This document shows positions 3,557 through 12,986 of a DNA stretch of 46,008 nt, piece by piece. Source of the stretch: Octopus sinensis (Eukaryota). The notes beneath the pieces are model-generated. The model was not told where the DNA came from. It saw only the letters and a list, made by a program, of their open reading frames with translations, and ran no database searches. Each line of letters opens with the position of its first letter. The first letter of the stretch is position 1. The stretch is from positions 1-46,008 of the forward strand of contig NW_021834684.1 in assembly GCF_006345805.1 (NCBI RefSeq). Direction: 5' to 3'. A program made the translations under genes and the position numbers.

Positions 3557-4116
3557 GTTGAAATATTGTGTGCAAGATTTTTTATGTGATGTCGTGTGTT
3601 GAAACAGATATTGTTATATTTCGGAATGGTCATATTGACATATTTGGTGTTATTTTGCTTCAGTGTTATTTATTTTTTACATTAATCTTAATCTTATTTC
3701 GGCCGGAGTTATTTCGTCACACTCCTGTGATCGCATCAGTGGTCCTTTGATTTCTTCTTTCTTATTTGTGTCTCTCCTTACTAACCGTCAGCCATTTTGT
3801 ATTTCTATTGTATGTCTTCATTTGCGCATGCTTATATCTCTATGTGCGTCTATGTTTATATAGTGTGTGTATGTGGGGGGATGCCTGTAATATTTGTATC
3901 TTCTGTTTATATACGTTCATGTAATTTGTATTTTGTTTTTGTTGTTGTTGTTTTGTTTATTCTTATTTTGTTCATGTGTTTACATCTACTTATTATTATC
4001 ATTACATATGCTTGTATGTATGTATGTATGTATGTATAACAACAATACTAGTAATAACAATAACAAATCGAATTGAAAAAAAATATATATACGTATATAT
4101 ACACACACATATATAT

Positions 4117-4147
<31 letters not shown>

Positions 4148-4264
4148 GGTTAATCCAAACGGGAAAACAGAAAAAACAACAACACGTGGAACAATTACAG
4201 TATTATTATTATTAGGCGCTCAGGAAAATGGAAGAAGGAGGGTATGACGTTTCGAGCGGAGCTC

Positions 4265-4304
<40 letters not shown>

Positions 4305-6088
4305 TTTATTTCTATTTGTTTATTTATCTGTGTATTTATTATGTTTTCTGGATCCTCTATCGTCACATGTTGTGGTGTGTTAGTGCTCCATTCTAGTTTT
4401 CTATTCAGGCTACGTTTATTTTCTATTATGTGTGTAGCTCCTGTAATTTGTCTAATTGTTGCATCTGTTCTATGTGTGGACAATATTTTAATTTTTATGT
4501 TATTGATTGATCCCCCGTGTTTCTGTTCGGCGTGTTGGTACAGAATCGATGAGCTTTTACCTTCCTTGAGCTGTCTCCAATGTCCATTTACCCGCTCTCC
4601 TATGCTTCTTGCCGTTTCCCCTACGTATGTCGTCTTGTTACTGCATCGTCCCTCTATACATCTTATACTATAGACTACATTCCTGGCTTTACAGTTTGTT
4701 TGTGGGCTAAATCTACATACAGTACAGTACTTATCCGTACTGGCGGTTCTACTAAAAGGATAGGTTCTACCAATTATAGATTTGATAGGGTTGCCTGGCT
4801 TTTCAACAACCTTAATTCTTGGCTTCAGTTTGTCTAGGGTCCTTCTAAAGCGGTACGCCAGTTCACCTCCAGGGGTGGTGTCAACGAACATGACACTCTG
4901 GTATTTATGGTTATCATACCATAAGTTGGCCTTCCCTATTTTCTTTTTTGTCCTTTCTATAGTGTTCCATGACTTGTTCCTATAGAGTGGGCAAATCCCA
5001 TTCCTATCATTACATAATATATTATCAAATTTCTTCATGGCTCCTTTGTATACTCTGATCCTTTCTTTATGGATGTAACCTGAGAACTGCATGCGGTGAA
5101 TGAAATATCGTATGTGTTTCTTTAACTCTGTGGGCTCGCACATGCGTGACACATTTCTCATTATTCTGAAGAGGTCTGCCATCAAAATATTGAATTTGGC
5201 ATTGTCCGCAATGGCTGAGTTCCGGTGGATCAAGTATTTTGAGGCCATAGGTTTGGCATAGTATGAATGAAGGATTTGGGTTTTATTATTCACAATTTCA
5301 AGCCAGAGTTCAGTGTCTAGCACTGGTAGTCTATGGTTGGGGTAGTCTATTGTAACCTTAATACTCTGGAGGATGGAGTTATCTATTTGCTGGATACTCT
5401 CCATAGTATTAGTTTCTATTTCTCTTTCAAGAGTTTTCTCTTGTGGGGGTGCCTTTACCACTATGTTGATATCATCAAGATAGCGAGATTACATGTTTAC
5501 GAGTATGGAGTTCTGTGTTAGGCGTTCTTTAAGCCTTCTGTCCCACCATACCATGGAAAGGTTAGCCACATCACCAGCGATACTAACGCCGATGGCTGCC
5601 CCCTCGTCCTAGGCATATATTTTATTATTAAACTTAAACGTGTGGCCTTTTAGGGTAACTCTTATACTAGCTCCTAGTGCATGTGCGATCATTTTCTTTA
5701 CCTGTTGGACATTTGCGGGGCTCCGTATGGCTCTGGTCCATCCGCGCCATCTTTCTATATGTGTCTTCCTAGCCATAGAAGTAATTGTGGGCGGTCTACC
5801 TCTTAAACATCTACTGGGGCAGAAACTACTAAGATTATGCTTATCTAAGTATTCATTATTACATGTCAGTCTAAGTAGGAGGCCCAGTTCTTCTGTGTTG
5901 ACATTACGGAACTCCACCTGGCTCTCGTTGATCATCTCCACGCACTTCTCCACCGCAAAATCTACGTCGATCGATGGGTATAGGGATACCACATCCATGC
6001 TACCCACCATACATCCTGTCAGGTCATAAGTGTTGTTACAGTCATTGATCCTGCTGAGGAGATCTTATGTGCTGTCACAAACATCAAT
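4148..6088 (-). mobile_element. Penelope-like retroelement (5'-truncated): RT plus GIY-YIG endonuclease, with 3' terminal region
   Basis: SMDVVSLYPSI, GAAIG and RYLDD (~5470-5485) RT motifs; NVVYSIRC...TYVGETARSIGERVNGH GIY-YIG; in-frame stops. Confidence 0.9.
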
Positions 6089-7790
6089 TTTATATTTACC
6101 TGGTAACTTCGAATTATCAATCGCTGATAACCCAGCCTCGGCCTGTTTCATAATTTCAATCCCACGACTTCTGTCTGACAATGTTCCAGCGTATACTCGA
6201 CCCAAGCTCTTGACGGGCTCTTCCTTGACTGTTGGAATGCTTTCTTCAGATATTCGAAACTTAAATTCTTTCTGCACTCCCTTAACAAATGTCAGACTAC
6301 GCGACTTTTTTGCTCTAAATCGCATCCTTGACCACCTTACAAGTTCGTCTAATCTCAAGAGGGCATTCTGCATGATTTTTTCATCTGTAGCTAGAAGTGT
6401 CACGTCATCCATGAAGGCTTTCTTAGGCGATTGTACATGGGCGATTTGTTCCGAAAAATCTACACCTTCCAAAATCAACTCCATGACTAAGATAAACCAC
6501 GTGACAGATATCGTACAGCCAGCAGCAATGCCAACTTCCAATCGGTGCCAATTTGTTGTAAAATTTCCAGTCGTAAACCTCATTTCGAAACTGTCATAGT
6601 ACATCCTCATTATTTGATCACTTTGTCAGGAATGTGGAAGTGGTCCATGGCTGTTATTAGTAATTTGTGTAAATATGCCACTGTTCTCCTCGACAGAATT
6701 CCATAAAGATCTTGCCTTGTAGGTATCCTTGATATGAGCATCCAATTCTTCTTTAGTACACGATAAAGTGCCACTCTTCGGTTCAGTTAATAGCTTCTTA
6801 GTAAACCCGTACGGGTCCTTCAGAAACTGCCCCCGAGTCCTTTTACTTTCTTTTCGACGCTCACATCGGCGGATATGTCGTTGCACATAACGACATTTCC
6901 TCTTCAAATCGTTATACAGCAGCGCAAGGCCAGGTTTCTCATCTAGTGCAGCACATCTCCATCGCTTTCTTAAGTCGGACTTTTCCTTCCTCAACTGCTG
7001 CATTTTTCTGATCCTCTTGCTTGGTCCACACTTTCCTTTCTCTAGCCGGATATTCTCTTTTATTCCAAATAAATCTTTCCTATATCGTATATTGAGCTTG
7101 ATAATTTGCCCAGTTTCTCCACTGTAGAGTCTGTCATTTTATAAAGAGCCGACAAACCTTGTTTTCAAACTCTTTATATTTCACTTTCTCATTAGCAGCA
7201 GCCACAAAACCCTCGGTTTCCTCTGAGTATTATCCGATGCACCAGTTTCATGACTTGTAGTTTCATCACGCGAAAAGGTCTCTGCTGTAGCATTTATCGA
7301 TCTGCTGTGGTTTGAGTCCGGGGATGATTTGCCACGTGTTTTACGATCTGACGATCCACACTGCTCTGTCCTCTTCTCACAAGTCTTTCCCTGATGTATC
7401 TTCAAGCCTCACAGTTGCAAAGGTTCTACAGCACAGCTTGCATCCAAAGTTGTTTGCATTTCGTTCGCTGTTCGAATGAATAACCGCACTCGTTTCCAAG
7501 GTCATTCCCGTGCTGACTCGGTTTGATTGATTCTCGATTCTCCCCTCTCGGTCGATCGTGGGGCTGTCATATCCATTCATATCTGTTACAATATATTACA
7601 AAGGCGAGGATCGTAAGTCCGCAGCCTCCACCAGTTTCCTGGTGTCGATAGTCTTTCCTATTGTCCGCTCGTCTTTCCGAGCAGTCCTCTTGTCTTTCCA
7701 AGATGCCTAACCGTCTTTCCGGTTTGTCAGTGGTTCCCTACCACAAGGTCTTAGATGTCTTGCAAACAACTTGCACATGCAAGTGCTACC
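6089..7790 (-). mobile_element. HERO-like non-LTR retrotransposon 5' part (5' UTR, N-terminal Zn finger, internally deleted RT)
   Basis: CKLCCRTF...KIHQGKTC; FLKDPYGFTKKLL; GIAAGCTISV and AFMDD RT motifs typical of HERO-type elements. Confidence 0.8.
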
Positions 7791-8108
7791 AGTTAAAAGC
7801 TCCGTATACCGGAAGCTAGCAAGTGTATGGGGTCATCAGGAGAGATTGCGCGCCGTTTCGGGGCCTACCTCTCGACGGCATCAATGCGCACTGATATGAG
7901 GCTCCGCTTGCTAGATCAGCTGGTTATGAAGAACTCAATATACTTCTAGCCATCGCTCATCGTCTCTTTTTAACCAAATCCAGTGGCTAGCCTTCTCCAC
8001 TGTAGATTGGATATCAGTCATGATGGTATTGACTTTACGATGAGTTAGGCCTAGCGATAACAACAGTCGTCTCACGCTGTGTCCAACAAACCCTCTACAT
8101 CCAATTTC
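7791..8108 (-). mobile_element. HERO-like element C-terminal end and 3' UTR
   Basis: EIGCRGFVGHS...EKASHWIWLKRDD* is the end of a restriction-like endonuclease domain. Confidence 0.75.
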
Positions 8109-8329: not shown

Positions 8330-11300
8330 AGACTTATGACATGTTCATGAGGAATCTTTCATTCCCAGCACCCTCGCAACATGCAACCATCTTTCTTTGA
8401 ACATTTTCTTTGACAGGCATCTTCTTTCCAGCCTCACCTTCCTTTAAGGAGGAAGATAAAATATCTCACCAACCCGAGACCGGAGATGAGGTTGCCTGTC
8501 GCCAAACCTTTCATTCGCGACTTCCATACCACCTCTTTCGCTATTGCTACTACTGCGAGAAAACATTGCTTATCTTCTTTCGTGAGGAAATCCGACGGTC
8601 AGAGACAGAACATCAGACGACAGCTGTACTCTTCCCGAAACTGACAGCAGATGTTCTGCATAAACCCACACTTCAGACACTCCCGAACACTGAACAATAG
8701 CGTGCAGGCCAGTTTCCCTATCCCGTCCGCATCTTGGACAGTCGGCAGTGGTGGTTCGACCGTGTCCTGCGAGCTTATCCCGAACGGGTAAGGCTCCTCG
8801 GTAACATTGCCAGGCCAGGGATTTTTGGAAATTATCCAAACACCCCGGCCCAAACGTCCTTCGGAACAGACTGTTTAACTAGTTATCTCCGAGACTTAGG
8901 GTTTCCTCTAGGGTATCGTCGTTCCCAGCCTCTACCAACCTGCTATAGAAAAATGTGGTGGTACCAAAACCGCTAGCATTACCCGAGCGATGGAACTGTA
9001 GGAGTGCTTTACGGCACTCCGTAAAACATGTACCCAACCTCGTTCTACGAAGGAACCAGCTTTCTTGTCCACTAAAACTTGTGAACCTGGGAAACATCCG
9101 TTTCGCGAGCGGAGACCACACCTGTTAACCATTCAGGAGTAGCCGGAGATACCTGAACCTCAGCGCATGTTTGCACATCAACAGCCAAGGCATCCCCAGT
9201 CCTCCATTCAACGGCTTTTGGCAGCAGATAGAACGCCTCACTAGAGGAGTGGTGCCCTTCCACAAAAAGCGGAAGATCTGCTTCTCCAGCTTGCTCAACC
9301 ACGAACCGGGACAGGGCACGACGGTTAGGCGGTAAATGATGACCGATGCGATAAACACATTGGCCACCTCCGCCCTCCCTTTCAAGGATAGCCACCGCCA
9401 AGACCAGGTCTTGACTATGCAGGTCACCTTGCTCAATACCTCTGCCCAGTTCTTTTCTACCTGGAGGTATGGTCTAAACCATACCCCTAGCAGCTTAACC
9501 GGGCCCTCCGTCCAACGTCCCACGACGCTATCCAAAGGCATCGACTTGCCCCTCCAGGTGCCGAGTTGCAAGCCGACTGACTTTTCCCGGTTAATCTTTG
9601 CTCCTGCCACCGTCTCGTAAACCTAATTGTTTCACGTACCCTCTGTAGGTGTTCCATCTTGGTTACAAGAATGGTGATGTCATCCGCATATGCTGAAACC
9701 GACTCTCCAACAGCCGGCCCCCTCGGGATGCCGCTCAACTTTTGCAGTAACGGCTCTAGGGCCATCACATACAAAAGTGGCGAAAGCGGACATCCTTGGC
9801 GAACCGAGCGCTTCATAGAGAACGGCCTAGAAAGAAATCCGTTCACCCGAACGATCGAATCGATGTTGTCGTATAATTGGATTATCCACCTAAAGAAGCC
9901 AAGACCCAGCCCGAACTGTGCTAACACGGACACCAGGTATCGATTAGTCAACCCTACCGAATGCTTTTGATGATCTAAATGGACCAAAATCACTACCAGA
10001 ATCACTACCAAAACCTTCTAAGGTATAGCGTATAAGATGGAGATTGTCCTGAATGCTTCTGCCGGGGACGGCACAGGTTTTTGCCTTGCCGATCAGAGTA
10101 TTCGCGACCTGCCCCAATCTTTTTGCTAGTACCTTGGCCAAAATCTTCACCTCTGCGTTTAACAGAGTGATGGGCCTAAAGTTGTCTATCTTATCTCCCT
10201 TGTTTGGGTCCTTCCTGACCACAGTCACCACTCCCCTGCGTACAGATCTGGGAATCGACCCATTCTACTGCCAGTTATCGTAAACCCCGGCCAGAATTTG
10301 CCCATACAAGTCTGGCATACTTTAGTACATTTCATAAGGCAAACCACCAAGTCCCGGCGCCCTACCAGCTTTACAGTTCGTTATAGCCTCTCTCACCTCC
10401 TGAGGTGTTATCGGACCCTCACAGCACTCAGCATCCTGCCCCGAGAGACGCGGCAGCCCGGCAAGGAAGTCCGAAATGTCCAACCTACCATCCGATCCAT
10501 CGCCCCTCCCGAAAAGCTGTGCAAAGTGCTCCTGAAAAGCCTGACACATCTCATCGGGTCGTTCACAATCTCGCCTTGTAGATTCTCCACAGATCGAATT
10601 ATGGAATCATTTCCACGTTGGGTTTCCATCACCCGAGCCCATCCAGCGGCATTGATCCCCTCACTCCCCATTGCACGAAGTCTACCCCTGATAATGCATC
10701 CCATGTGTTTGGCCTCGAGGTGCTGGTTTAATTCCAGTCTCTTAGCCTTCGCCTGAGCAGCACTACCAGTCAACACTGCTTCCTCTAATTCCTTAACCAG
10801 TTCTAGTTCTCTCTTACGCTCTCTTGCCACTAAACCTATGCTATATCTAACAGACTCAAATTTAATGGCTCTTTTGAGGGCGTACCACCATTTATTATTA
10901 ATGATGGTACCAGTTAAAGCCCTCTGTATCAGTAACTTAATCCGGCTTCTGTACTCTTCGTTCGCCAAATGGGACTTATTGAGTTTCTAGTAACCGGATC
11001 CTCTACTCTGTAACTTATCTAGGTTCAGCTTACAAGTGACCAATTATGATCACTGTAGCTGACCAAGTGGAACTGTGGACACTTAGCTATGGATCTATCT
11101 GTTCTCTAATTAGAATCATCCTATCTATATAGGACTTAAAAGACCCGTCACCACTTAACCATGTCCACATTGGGGTGTTCGGGAATTCAAGTCTGTATGG
11201 ATCTACTAGCTGAAAGCGACTTAGTAGATCCCGGAACCGGCATTAGGTATTCTATTTTGGTTCGAGCCACATTATCCACGCGCGCATCTTGAATAACATT

Positions 11301-11715
11301 AAAGTCCCCTAACAAAACTAATGGGTACGCCGTACCAAGAAACTTCTCTAGGTCTCGGAAATACTCAGACTGACCATGTAGGGGGTGTAAATTGCCACCA
11401 GTCTGATTTCTTACCGCAACTTAAAGTCAGGTCGAAGACGACCAGCCTACCCTCTGGGTCACAAAAAATTAACTTCTCTGAAACCCGGTTTCTTTTTAGT
11501 ATGACCAACACCCCCACACCCACCCGCCGGTGGACTGGAGAAATAAATTTCTCGTATCCGTCCAGGAGTGGGAGCAGTCCTCTTGATCCCTTTAACCGGG
11601 TTTCAGTAGCAACAATGACATCCTAATTATGTGACATGACGTCGTTTAAGAAGCGACTTTGCTTCCATCCCGCCGTCAGGCCACACACATTTAAACATCC
11701 AACGTGAACTGCCAT
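8330..11715 (-). pseudogene. Tx1-like ORF2 (APE endonuclease, RT, Zn finger), multiply frameshifted
   Basis: Series of minus-strand ORF fragments carrying APE, RT and C-terminal CCHC motifs in the expected order. Confidence 0.85.
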
Positions 11716-11725
11716 AAGTCTTACC

Positions 11726-12986
11726 TCAATTTCTTATGTCTTCGCTAAAAGGCGGAGGTGGGTCCGCCTCTTTTTCTTTTTCTCGGGCTCGTGGAGTCGT
11801 TTTAATTAAGCCAACATCACTCCGATGGTCATTTGCTAGAACGTTGTAAGACGTTCTGTCTACGTGGTAGACTTCGAAACCGTCTTTAACGTTTTTGCAT
11901 CCAGTTCTTTTTAGTTTTTTAATTTCTATTTGGCTCATTAATCTCGAGTTTGAGGTTCGAACCGCCATATATAGAACTTCTTTTTCTCGTATTTCTTTTG
12001 TTTTTGATTTTTTGGCTTTTTCATGCCTTCTTTGAGTTTGCATTTTTGCCAATGATTTAACATTTCCCTTTAATTTCCTTTTGCTACCAGCTCTCTTCCA
12101 TTCCGTCTCTTCTTTATTTCCGCTCTCATTTTCTTCTTCTGCGCTTTCTTCTTCTGTTTTCCCATTCTCTGTAGTTTCCTCTTCCGAGTCTTCTTCAATG
12201 TTGTTCTCTTTTTCTTTTTCTTCACCACTCTTGCATTCGGACCTAACATGGCCCTTCTTTCCACATTTAAAACATCTGGGTTTTCTACATTCCACCATTA
12301 CTACTAACTTCGTACCCATTATATCTATGACCTCTGGAATTTTTTCTAGGGTCATAGGCTCTGCTTGGATCAGCATTTTAATTGTTTGGCCAAGCCAGAC
12401 TTTGTCTTCTGTTACTTCCGCAGAAAGCAGTGTGATTTCTTCCTCTAGGTCATACAGCACTGCCGCTACTAGCCATTCGGCGTCCGCCTCCGGTGGTACA
12501 CAGCTTATCTTTATTCGGGAGGTTCTCCTCCCCATATAAAATGGCAACAGTACTACCTCATCCGTTCGCAGCGGCTCCACAGAATACTTTTGCGCCTGTT
12601 CCACTGTTGACATCCTCACTTCAACAGTTGCATATCTTTTTCCTCTGGCCAAATATGTGATGTTATTCCAAATTGGCCTTAAATATTTTTCTACACTTCT
12701 GTCATTGACATTTCTTTTCAACATTATATGTTTTGAAAATTACAGTCCTTTCGAGTGCATCTTTAATTATGCTATGAGGAGGGACCACCTTTATTTCGGT
12801 CCCTTCTTTTGTTAACAGCTCTCGGTTTGCCTTCAAATTGGTTGTATCAATTTTCCTTGAGTTTCCTCCGGCGGCAGCCGCAAAGCTCCTTATTGGCTCT
12901 TCTAATATCCTTCTGCTCACTACAGAATCCTTACTGATACTTGGCACTGGAGATACACTCTCCCTACGCGCGACAGTACCTTCCAT
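11726..12986 (-). pseudogene. Tx1-like ORF1 (gag-like, zinc knuckle), one frameshift near 12710
   Basis: ORFs 12702-12986 and 11726-12724; CFKCGKKGHVRSEC followed by acidic and basic tracts. Confidence 0.8.

Follow-up and report, generated by a model that had tools for sequence, protein, structure and literature searches.

In the genome of Octopus sinensis, a row of short hairpins that share one loop and differ in their stems stands at the head of a retrotransposon of the R2 group, and the question raised by this locus is what such a row does in a mobile element. The locus lies in a stretch of 46,008 nucleotides (nt) of NCBI RefSeq assembly GCF_006345805.1 (contig NW_021834684.1, positions 1 to 46,008 of the forward strand), referred to here as the window. 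The hairpin units are selected RNA structures with a fixed G(A/G)C word upstream of each stem. With a probability of about 0.5, the array marks an internal start of reverse transcription on an RNA circle, which a neighbouring permuted hammerhead ribozyme is predicted to cut.

The element is a retrotransposon with a restriction-like endonuclease (RLE) and a unit of ~3,737 nt (3.74 kb), as defined from the natural copy L061. The motifs read in the single open reading frame (ORF) of this copy are a C2H2-type finger, a reverse transcriptase (RT), a CCHC knuckle and a PD..ELTVP nuclease, and an RVT_1 domain match was obtained in the window element. Named protein matches come from a cephalopod, a lancelet and fishes, and the R2 proteins are the best solved relatives of the element protein. 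We take the element to be HERO-like on the strength of a preliminary description of the window and of its motifs. The insertions are mostly not site-specific, which is a HERO-like trait; the 3' flanks differ among 50 ends and are often TA-rich.

Hairpin array and its conservation

The preliminary description placed the octamer GTCTTTCC at 7651, 7671, 7692 and 7713, where it is indeed found; a fifth copy occurs at 7383, inside the coding region. These five matches compare with 0.86 expected, and none of 100 shuffles reached five. The minus strand folds into the seven hairpins that had been proposed (z = -4.26; 0 of 200 shuffles equally stable). The four units described are real, but the array has five, the supposed GNRA hairpin being a fifth unit with a 2-nt deletion. 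Across 33 distinct genomic contexts the loop of this unit is GAAAGA in 28, AAAAGA in one and GAAA in one (the window), with three unparsed.

The unit can be written as G(A/G)C-N followed by a stem of 4-5 bp and the loop G[GANAGA]C. The G(A/G)C-N word, absent from the earlier account, stands directly 5' of every stem. GRC occurs at 4- or 5-bp spacing in all four intact units of the window, whereas strict GACR is present in three of five, the other two having GGCA and GACU. The window contains four complete units, all within the array and all with GAAAGA loops, and 20 shuffles contained none. The stems are perfectly paired in the window, as had been stated, but stem 3 carries a C.C mismatch in 6 of 33 contexts, and one natural array copy folds at z = -1.5 only. 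The ACUUGC hairpin also folds, but it flanks the array only as part of the 3' untranslated region (UTR) of an upstream partial copy. The covariance models of Rfam 15 gave no match over the array or the ribozyme.

A scan of metagenome contigs found 325 relatives, of which 80 were kept. The unit recurs with compensating stems in retrotransposons of 38-60% protein identity. When octamers were taken by sequence alone, at least two further pairs were present at 44 of the 53 sites in leaders, at 5 of the 40 in coding sequence and at 11 of the 15 elsewhere, many of these last being leaders separated from their ORF. Pairing held in 133 of 159 cells, against a maximum of 101 in 10,000 arm swaps. In a set of 36 hand-picked units, from which unpaired leader sites were excluded, 60 cells had changed on both sides and pairing dropped to 17-46% in slid structures. 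The stem is of free sequence and 4-5 bp long with a G-C closing pair, which is part of the search pattern. GRC at the spacing of the flavivirus interlock (see below) was found in 58 of 73 non-coding hairpins versus 15 of 274 coding loop matches of the retrotransposon set. The loops of the family units are GANAGA in 36 of 58 cases, and the remainder vary at L2 or L6 or have 7 nt.

The innermost variable pair occurs as four pair types. The stem pairs include 13 G.U versus 3 A.C, and the motif is found 116 times in sense versus 26 times in antisense orientation; this excess and this bias favour RNA over the single-stranded DNA or promoter sites that had been suggested. The same pair types, G.U preference and strand bias, together with the presence of the unit in transfer-messenger RNA (tmRNA) and RNA-virus sequence, oppose a neutral origin by tandem duplication of a palindromic word, and also a DNA-level site spaced by two helical turns, although many stems share an ancestral CCAG/CUGG, the period is 19-22 nt and triple-octamer matches in viral contigs are for the most part simple repeats, with 62 of 207 octamers paired. 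Because of the covariation, this explanation is refuted in the main, and we regard it as extremely improbable.

The array lies 5' of the ORF in every array-bearing family and is separated from the zinc finger by 200-300 nt and further hairpins. It occurs on all main branches of a 65-row clade, as judged from a quick tree with array labels assigned by hand. Longer and different leaders are found in L118, L122 and L123 and in L183 and L186-L188. Viral contigs yielded no protein relatives, and genome contigs yielded six distant protein-relative loci with no paired octamer. No other element family with the array was seen among the 100 of 139 matches listed from the octopus genome, all of which belong to the described family or to simple repeats.

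Permuted hammerhead core in the 3' UTR

Hammerhead blocks are located ~120 nt upstream of the element 3' end, after the stop codon, in the order cleavage site, GAAA and CUGANGA. The predicted core is thus of the non-circularly permuted (S-G-C order) kind, an order that Eckert et al. 2023 (PMC10085705) validated in vitro. A strict search gave 35 matches in 31 of the 80 loci (one within an ORF), none in antisense and none in three shuffles. When two mismatches were allowed, the core was found in 27 of 35 3' UTRs, again never in antisense. The core positions C3 U4 G5 A6 N7 G8 A9, G12 A13 A14, A15.1-U16.1 and H17 are kept in 18 distinct cores, among which only positions 3/8 vary (16 C-G, 1 U-A and 1 U.G) and position 17 is never G. 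Covariation of 3-8 is also known from Penelope hammerheads (PMC4209133). Stems I and III are paired in 84 of 84 and 83 of 84 cells, respectively, and their pair types are mixed; the search itself required pairing, and the swap maxima were 61 and 68.

The strand after CUGANGA pairs upstream, then a hairpin follows, and then the G10.1 strand. Stem II can be formed through the upstream strand, giving a four-way junction without unpaired bases, in 17 of 21 families (2-8 in the swap control), and the G10.1-C11.1 pair is restored by this strand in 16 of the 17 junctions. A pattern that agrees with the kink-turn consensus follows stem III in 14 of 21 families. We know of no insertion at A9/G10.1 as large as the one here; single-base insertions at this place occur in natural hammerheads (PMC4209133). 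The type SGC hammerheads (PMC10085705) share the order site-GAAA-CUGANGA, a short linker between stems I and II and the full catalytic core. The retrotransposon hammerhead differs from them in that the 5' strand of stem II comes from upstream, a helix and a hairpin are inserted at A9/G10.1, stem III continues into the kink-turn pattern in those families and cleavage is a prediction. It is found in chromosomal retrotransposons, whereas type SGC was described in hairpin-ribozyme contigs.

The window copy of the ribozyme is without the 13-nt stretch that holds the 5' strand of stem II, a loss shared by 7 of 81 contexts, and is therefore probably dead. Hepatitis delta virus (HDV)-like and twister readings of 7829-7907 were dropped by eye for the hammerhead core.

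Element ends, junctions and tandem copies

All 21 loci from the protein search end at unit positions 3730-3736 (window 7751-7756) and have no tail. Fifty distinct 3' ends, partly selected by the query, agree over 0-7 nt with the sequence that continues in tandem copies. Four other families (L114/115, L130, L137/138 and L145) have tandem as well as terminal copies, and in these the 3' end precedes the leader hairpin at the head of the array by 4-6 nt; in the window element the interval is 4-11 nt. The distance from the cut site to the array is 112-183 nt in 11 tandem loci. Among 31 distinct 5' flanks of array-bearing copies (~28 independent), 23 start upstream of the predicted cut site, reaching up to 985 nt before the junction, five start between cut site and junction, three inside the unit and none at the junction or the cut site. 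A search with a 126-nt query for starts at the cut site was biased against such copies and is not counted. Junction length is equal in 32 of 33 contexts (one terminal end dropped; satellite copies included). A copy deleted for 2.6 kb that keeps the array and the ribozyme was found at two loci with different flanks. Logan contigs of presumed RNA runs bridge the head-to-tail junction in four of four runs, and those of at least one run also span the predicted cut site; as ends, strand and level are not readable from contigs, they are counted neither for nor against.

Many internally deleted copies with units of ~1-1.5 kb (L018, L023, L025-L028, L074, L088, L211 and L225/L226) keep the array and the ribozyme, and may represent a retrozyme-like, non-autonomous form. 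The ends of L125, L126, L129 and L135 lie near short TGATTC-like repeats, and a matching word is present at the tandem junction of L130-L132; the apparent tail of the former loci may be template-derived. In L162:3426-3920 a head-to-tail joint that spans ribozyme and array links two families of only 68% identity, which could reflect a template switch or an assembly chimera.

A linear template would offer another account of these ends. The hammerhead-like fold would then be a non-cutting 3' recognition tail, the RNA ends would come from transcription or a host nuclease, the array would be a 5' protein-binding site comparable to the R2 5' RNA, and tandems would come from template jumps or from insertion at the head of an older copy. 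The broken A9-G10.1 link and the joined families of L162 fit this account. The catalytic positions are nevertheless invariant in the 18 cores (with up to two mismatches allowed), including the exclusion of G at position 17 and the 3-8 covariation, and the upstream strand restores G10.1-C11.1 almost throughout. Since, in addition, no full-length copy begins at the junction and junction length is constant, a linear template is very unlikely.

The hairpin unit in other genetic contexts

The array units conform, by their sequence and with some relaxation, to the definition of the GACR/small hairpin (sHP) 'interlock' of mosquito-borne flaviviruses, described in a bioRxiv preprint (10.64898/2026.09.23.753880). 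Selective 2'-hydroxyl acylation analysed by primer extension (SHAPE) and mutagenesis revealed tertiary contacts there between the small hairpin and the GACR just upstream; L3 is the sole variable loop position and the G at L5 is key. Both patterns agree with the retrotransposon loops, in which variation is greatest at position 3 and G stands at position 5. The flavivirus interlock likewise has GAC directly 5' of a 4-5 bp stem, a G-C closing pair and a G-A-N-A-G-A hexaloop, but it is present as a single copy in the viral 3' UTR, where it regulates genome cyclisation, whereas the retrotransposons carry three to five tandem copies in the leader, in which GAC can be replaced by GGC and R by any base, loops can have 7 nt and L6 can be U, G or C. 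Published tables (PMC11432202) list one copy per flavivirus 3' UTR with the loops GAAAGA, GAGAGA or GAUAGA. The analogy suggests that in the retrotransposon, too, loop and GAC word very probably lock into a compact tertiary fold.

The unit is known from this one preprint and one virus group; phages, tRNA and retrotransposons go unmentioned in the preprint. In a control scan, viral contigs carried the unit far from any retrotransposon, with paired octamers at 46 loci, and a second scan found both hairpins in 65 of the best 80 loci. The GRC word was present in 32 of 38 and 43 of 53 units of the viral sets, where it had not been asked for. Of 57 distinct viral arrays, 25 precede a start codon, eight flank tRNA genes, four lie in tRNA clusters, three in tmRNA (ARAGORN) and 17 elsewhere; by Rfam, seven arrays fall within tmRNA matches among 40 loci. 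Arrays were found 5-21 nt before tRNAs. The reading of the array as RNA hairpins under selection, in which the loop is constant and the stems compensate, thus stands across families, but its assignment to the element's own zinc finger is not supported in the form proposed: no such protein would be expected in phage leaders, tRNA clusters, tmRNA or flavivirus 3' UTRs, and the unit matches a published RNA tertiary motif.

The unit also differs from the boxB-like site that had been proposed. Lambda boxB is likewise a short purine-loop hairpin, bound by the Arg-rich helix of a basic protein, with a GNRA-like pentaloop and no upstream word, whereas the unit has a 6-nt loop and an upstream word. The stem-loops recognised by the proteins of the stringent long interspersed nuclear elements (LINEs) UnaL2 and ZfL2 are also short hairpins near the priming site, but each is a single hairpin inside the copied 3' tail; both comparisons are made at the level of description.

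Several individual loci illustrate the range of contexts. Arrays occur in the 3' half of phage tmRNA genes (L269:113-481, L321, L334, L341, L350, L351 and L359), which is the usual place of pseudoknots. In L235, L255, L256, L283 and L288 (IMG/VR), two to seven units immediately precede the ribosome-binding site of a phrog_13908 gene, which is followed by a capsid-like gene. L239:731-798 and 1626-1693 lie in a tRNA cluster that also contains type II hammerheads and Y-RNA-like matches; the array follows a type II hammerhead on its 3' side at ~120 nt, an arrangement similar to that of the retrotransposon. Four units in L279:794-881 end 14 nt before an ORF with an RNA-virus-type helicase, and L251, L294 and L297 may be small RNA-virus contigs similar to it; L251 gave no match to annotated phages. 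L238/L280, an AT-rich viral contig, has two groups of three units beside an ORF that we take to resemble ATG9. The octamer is also present in 23S rRNA.

These contexts raise the possibility that the array drives cap-independent translation by recruiting ribosomes or an eEF1A-like factor to uncapped or circular RNA, the 3' end being set by the upstream fold alone. The ORF of the element often has no early AUG, R2 proteins start non-canonically (PMC13580325), the sHP loop of West Nile virus is a minor eEF1A site (PMC3917430) and cleaving hammerheads support viral cap-independent translation (PMC13725137). The position of the array 5' of the ORF, the start-codon-proximal viral arrays and the 14-nt spacing in the helicase-coding contig point the same way. 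The tight spacing, however, is to the 3' end and not to the ORF, from whose zinc finger the array is well removed, and where arrays lie by tRNA genes or late in tmRNA there is no ORF whose translation they could initiate. The ORF-deleted copy with the array was mobilised as well, although it was found via the array and so is no test of need. We consider this role rather unlikely.

The units might instead fold fast and act as protein-free insulators or exonuclease barriers that shield the ORF RNA after ribozyme cleavage and prevent misfolding of adjacent domains, with the 3'-end spacing as a by-product. The interlock is counted among the smallest self-contained, non-nested tertiary folding units (10.64898/2026.09.23.753880), and arrays are found across bacteria- and eukaryote-infecting hosts, in tmRNA, shortly before tRNAs and, in L239, downstream of a type II hammerhead. 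A barrier at an RNA 5' end should, however, cause insertion 5' ends to pile up, whereas 0 of 31 start there, and the tracking of the array by insertion 3' ends in five families is left unexplained; a barrier function is thus unlikely. The candidate roles of the array may overlap.

Proposed template and priming mechanism

In the circular-template model, a read-through transcript of a longer-than-unit copy would probably be cut by the hammerhead at both repeats and the 3.74-kb monomer closed to a circle. In a genomic insertion, host DNA rather than the array adjoins the terminal 3' end; with cuts at both ribozymes and closure of the monomer, the array would come to lie directly 3' of the priming site, a position it would have only in the circle (or in a multimer). 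There, the folded array, with the element protein and perhaps a host factor bound to it, would keep a short stretch single-stranded, to which the nicked target would anneal by 0-7 nt of microhomology; for this placement and priming together the odds are about even. Copying would run round the circle and past its start, producing tail-less, longer-than-unit insertions, and the many short copies, which lack the array, would be immobile. The model would explain the missing tail, the fixed end, the microhomology and the seamless longer-than-unit copies, and also why 5' ends do not pile up and how the deleted copy could move to two loci. A circle has been proposed for Penelope elements (PMC4209133), and the same circular-template logic for retrozymes (PMC4209133, PMC7229834). 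We infer the tertiary fold, the cleavage, the circle and the role of the array from sequence.

Several points weigh against this proposal. The canonical SGC stem II is not formed (0-2 of the first three pairs in 21 of 21 families), so that A9 is not joined to G10.1 and the core may be inactive, and 8 of 35 3' UTRs have no hammerhead core with up to two mismatches. No array was found in the leaders read of L118/L122/L123 and L183-L188, in which the hammerhead is present; with two hammerhead branches thus lacking it, the array is not needed by all relatives. One subfamily tolerates the broken stem 3. Loop positions 1, 4 and 5 were set in the search patterns, so that their constancy is no independent evidence. 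The 31 flanks and 33 junctions include copies of one satellite, which are not independent insertions, and uncut multimeric transcripts would give identical seamless junctions. The 25 of 57 viral arrays within ~40 nt of a start codon fit translation or protection equally.

The window copy and neighbouring sequences

The features of the window copy are listed in Table 1. This copy, by its frameshifts and deletions, is dead and forms part of a large tandem satellite; the 5' part of its ORF is frameshifted with two internal deletions, and the 3' part is missing. Splicing was rejected as the source of the deletions, as no GT..AG was present at 14 breakpoints. The DNA upstream of the array is the end of the element's own ORF with its 3' UTR, not host DNA.

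Table 1. Retrotransposon features in the window (window coordinates)
Feature	Position	Strand	Remarks
ORF, 5' part	6086..7600	-	C2H2-type zinc finger (~7380-7442), Arg-rich region, RT piece
Longer hairpin 3' of array	7601..7629	-	Hairpin at equivalent place in other families
Unit 5	7631..7646	-	GACA + 4-bp stem; loop 2 nt short in window copy alone
Unit 4	7648..7665	-	GACA + 4-bp stem + GAAAGA loop
Unit 3	7667..7686	-	GACU + 5-bp stem + GAAAGA loop; C.C mismatch in 6/33 genomic contexts
Unit 2	7688..7707	-	GGCA + 5-bp stem + GAAAGA loop
Unit 1	7709..7728	-	GACA + 5-bp stem + GAAAGA loop
Leader hairpin, opens array	7730..7744	-	Counterpart of CUGG...CCAG hairpin in other families
Element 3' end, putative start of reverse transcription	7749..7756	-	Seamless head-to-tail junction in window copy
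ACUUGC hairpin of 3' UTR	7769..7784	-	Just upstream of element 3' end
Permuted hammerhead core (predicted)	7829..7907	-	Predicted cut between 7874 and 7873
ORF end of upstream partial copy	7935..8108	-	Endonuclease tail and stop codon

Upstream of the described copy, a broken element with zf-CCHC, RVT_1 and zf-RVT pieces occupies 8570-12739 on the minus strand, and the two together form a block that is repeated many times on contig C18 (3.8-5.2 Mb). A fragment of another retroelement (4220-6064, minus strand) is fused to the truncated copy; it contains what we take to be a GIY-YIG-like motif, for which there is no Pfam match. The loci L078 and L204 (contigs C24 and C19, respectively) lie on different chromosomes and have a common foreign 5' flank, which suggests a chimeric master copy.

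Comparison with known retroelements and significance

R2 has a 5' HDV-like ribozyme and a linear template whose 3' UTR, upstream of the start, is the bound part, whereas the present element has its ribozyme in the 3' UTR and its candidate landmark downstream of the start. R2/RLE elements, including the mostly not site-specific HERO clade (PMC4640811), have the same single ORF with N-terminal zinc finger, RT, CCHC knuckle and PD..(D/E) nuclease, and also use short pairing between template and target DNA at priming (PMC4640811, PMC13580325). Penelope-like elements and non-LTR retrozymes share a hammerhead in a terminal repeat, head-to-tail longer-than-unit insertions and a proposed circular template; they differ from the element, which has an RLE endonuclease, an R2-group RT, another hammerhead topology and an array beside the priming site (PMC4209133, PMC7229834).

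A search of the openly accessible literature and of Rfam found no arrays in retrotransposons, no four-way permuted hammerhead, no circular route for an RLE element and no hammerhead described in HERO elements. The preliminary statement that no functional description exists therefore holds for the array and for retrotransposons within that literature, but not for the unit, which the flavivirus preprint describes. The preliminary description had also overlooked the adjacent putative start of reverse transcription, the tandem organisation and the permuted hammerhead.

Taken as a whole, a wider proposal is tentative: HERO-type elements would undergo rolling-circle target-primed reverse transcription on an RNA circle whose monomer is cut by a new, four-way and non-circularly permuted hammerhead, and a row of interlocks beyond the element 3' end would set internal priming. 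The interlock would then be a portable tertiary block found alike in animal retrotransposons, in flaviviruses and other RNA viruses, and in phage leaders and tmRNA; it might have a universal ligand, EF-Tu/eEF1A for example. The motif of the flavivirus preprint is in any case tied to a wide natural family with rich covariation, which provides models for structure determination and ligand finding. If the proposal is true, the element would be an R2-group retrotransposon with a 3' UTR ribozyme and a circular template primed from within. Only Penelope elements and retrozymes have so far been proposed to take this route. The hammerheads of the element would then be the first chromosomal eukaryotic family of the non-circularly permuted type in the literature searched. 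R2-group proteins are under development as RNA-templated gene-insertion tools, and a relative that primes internally on a stable circular RNA at a movable landmark would be directly useful for such tools.
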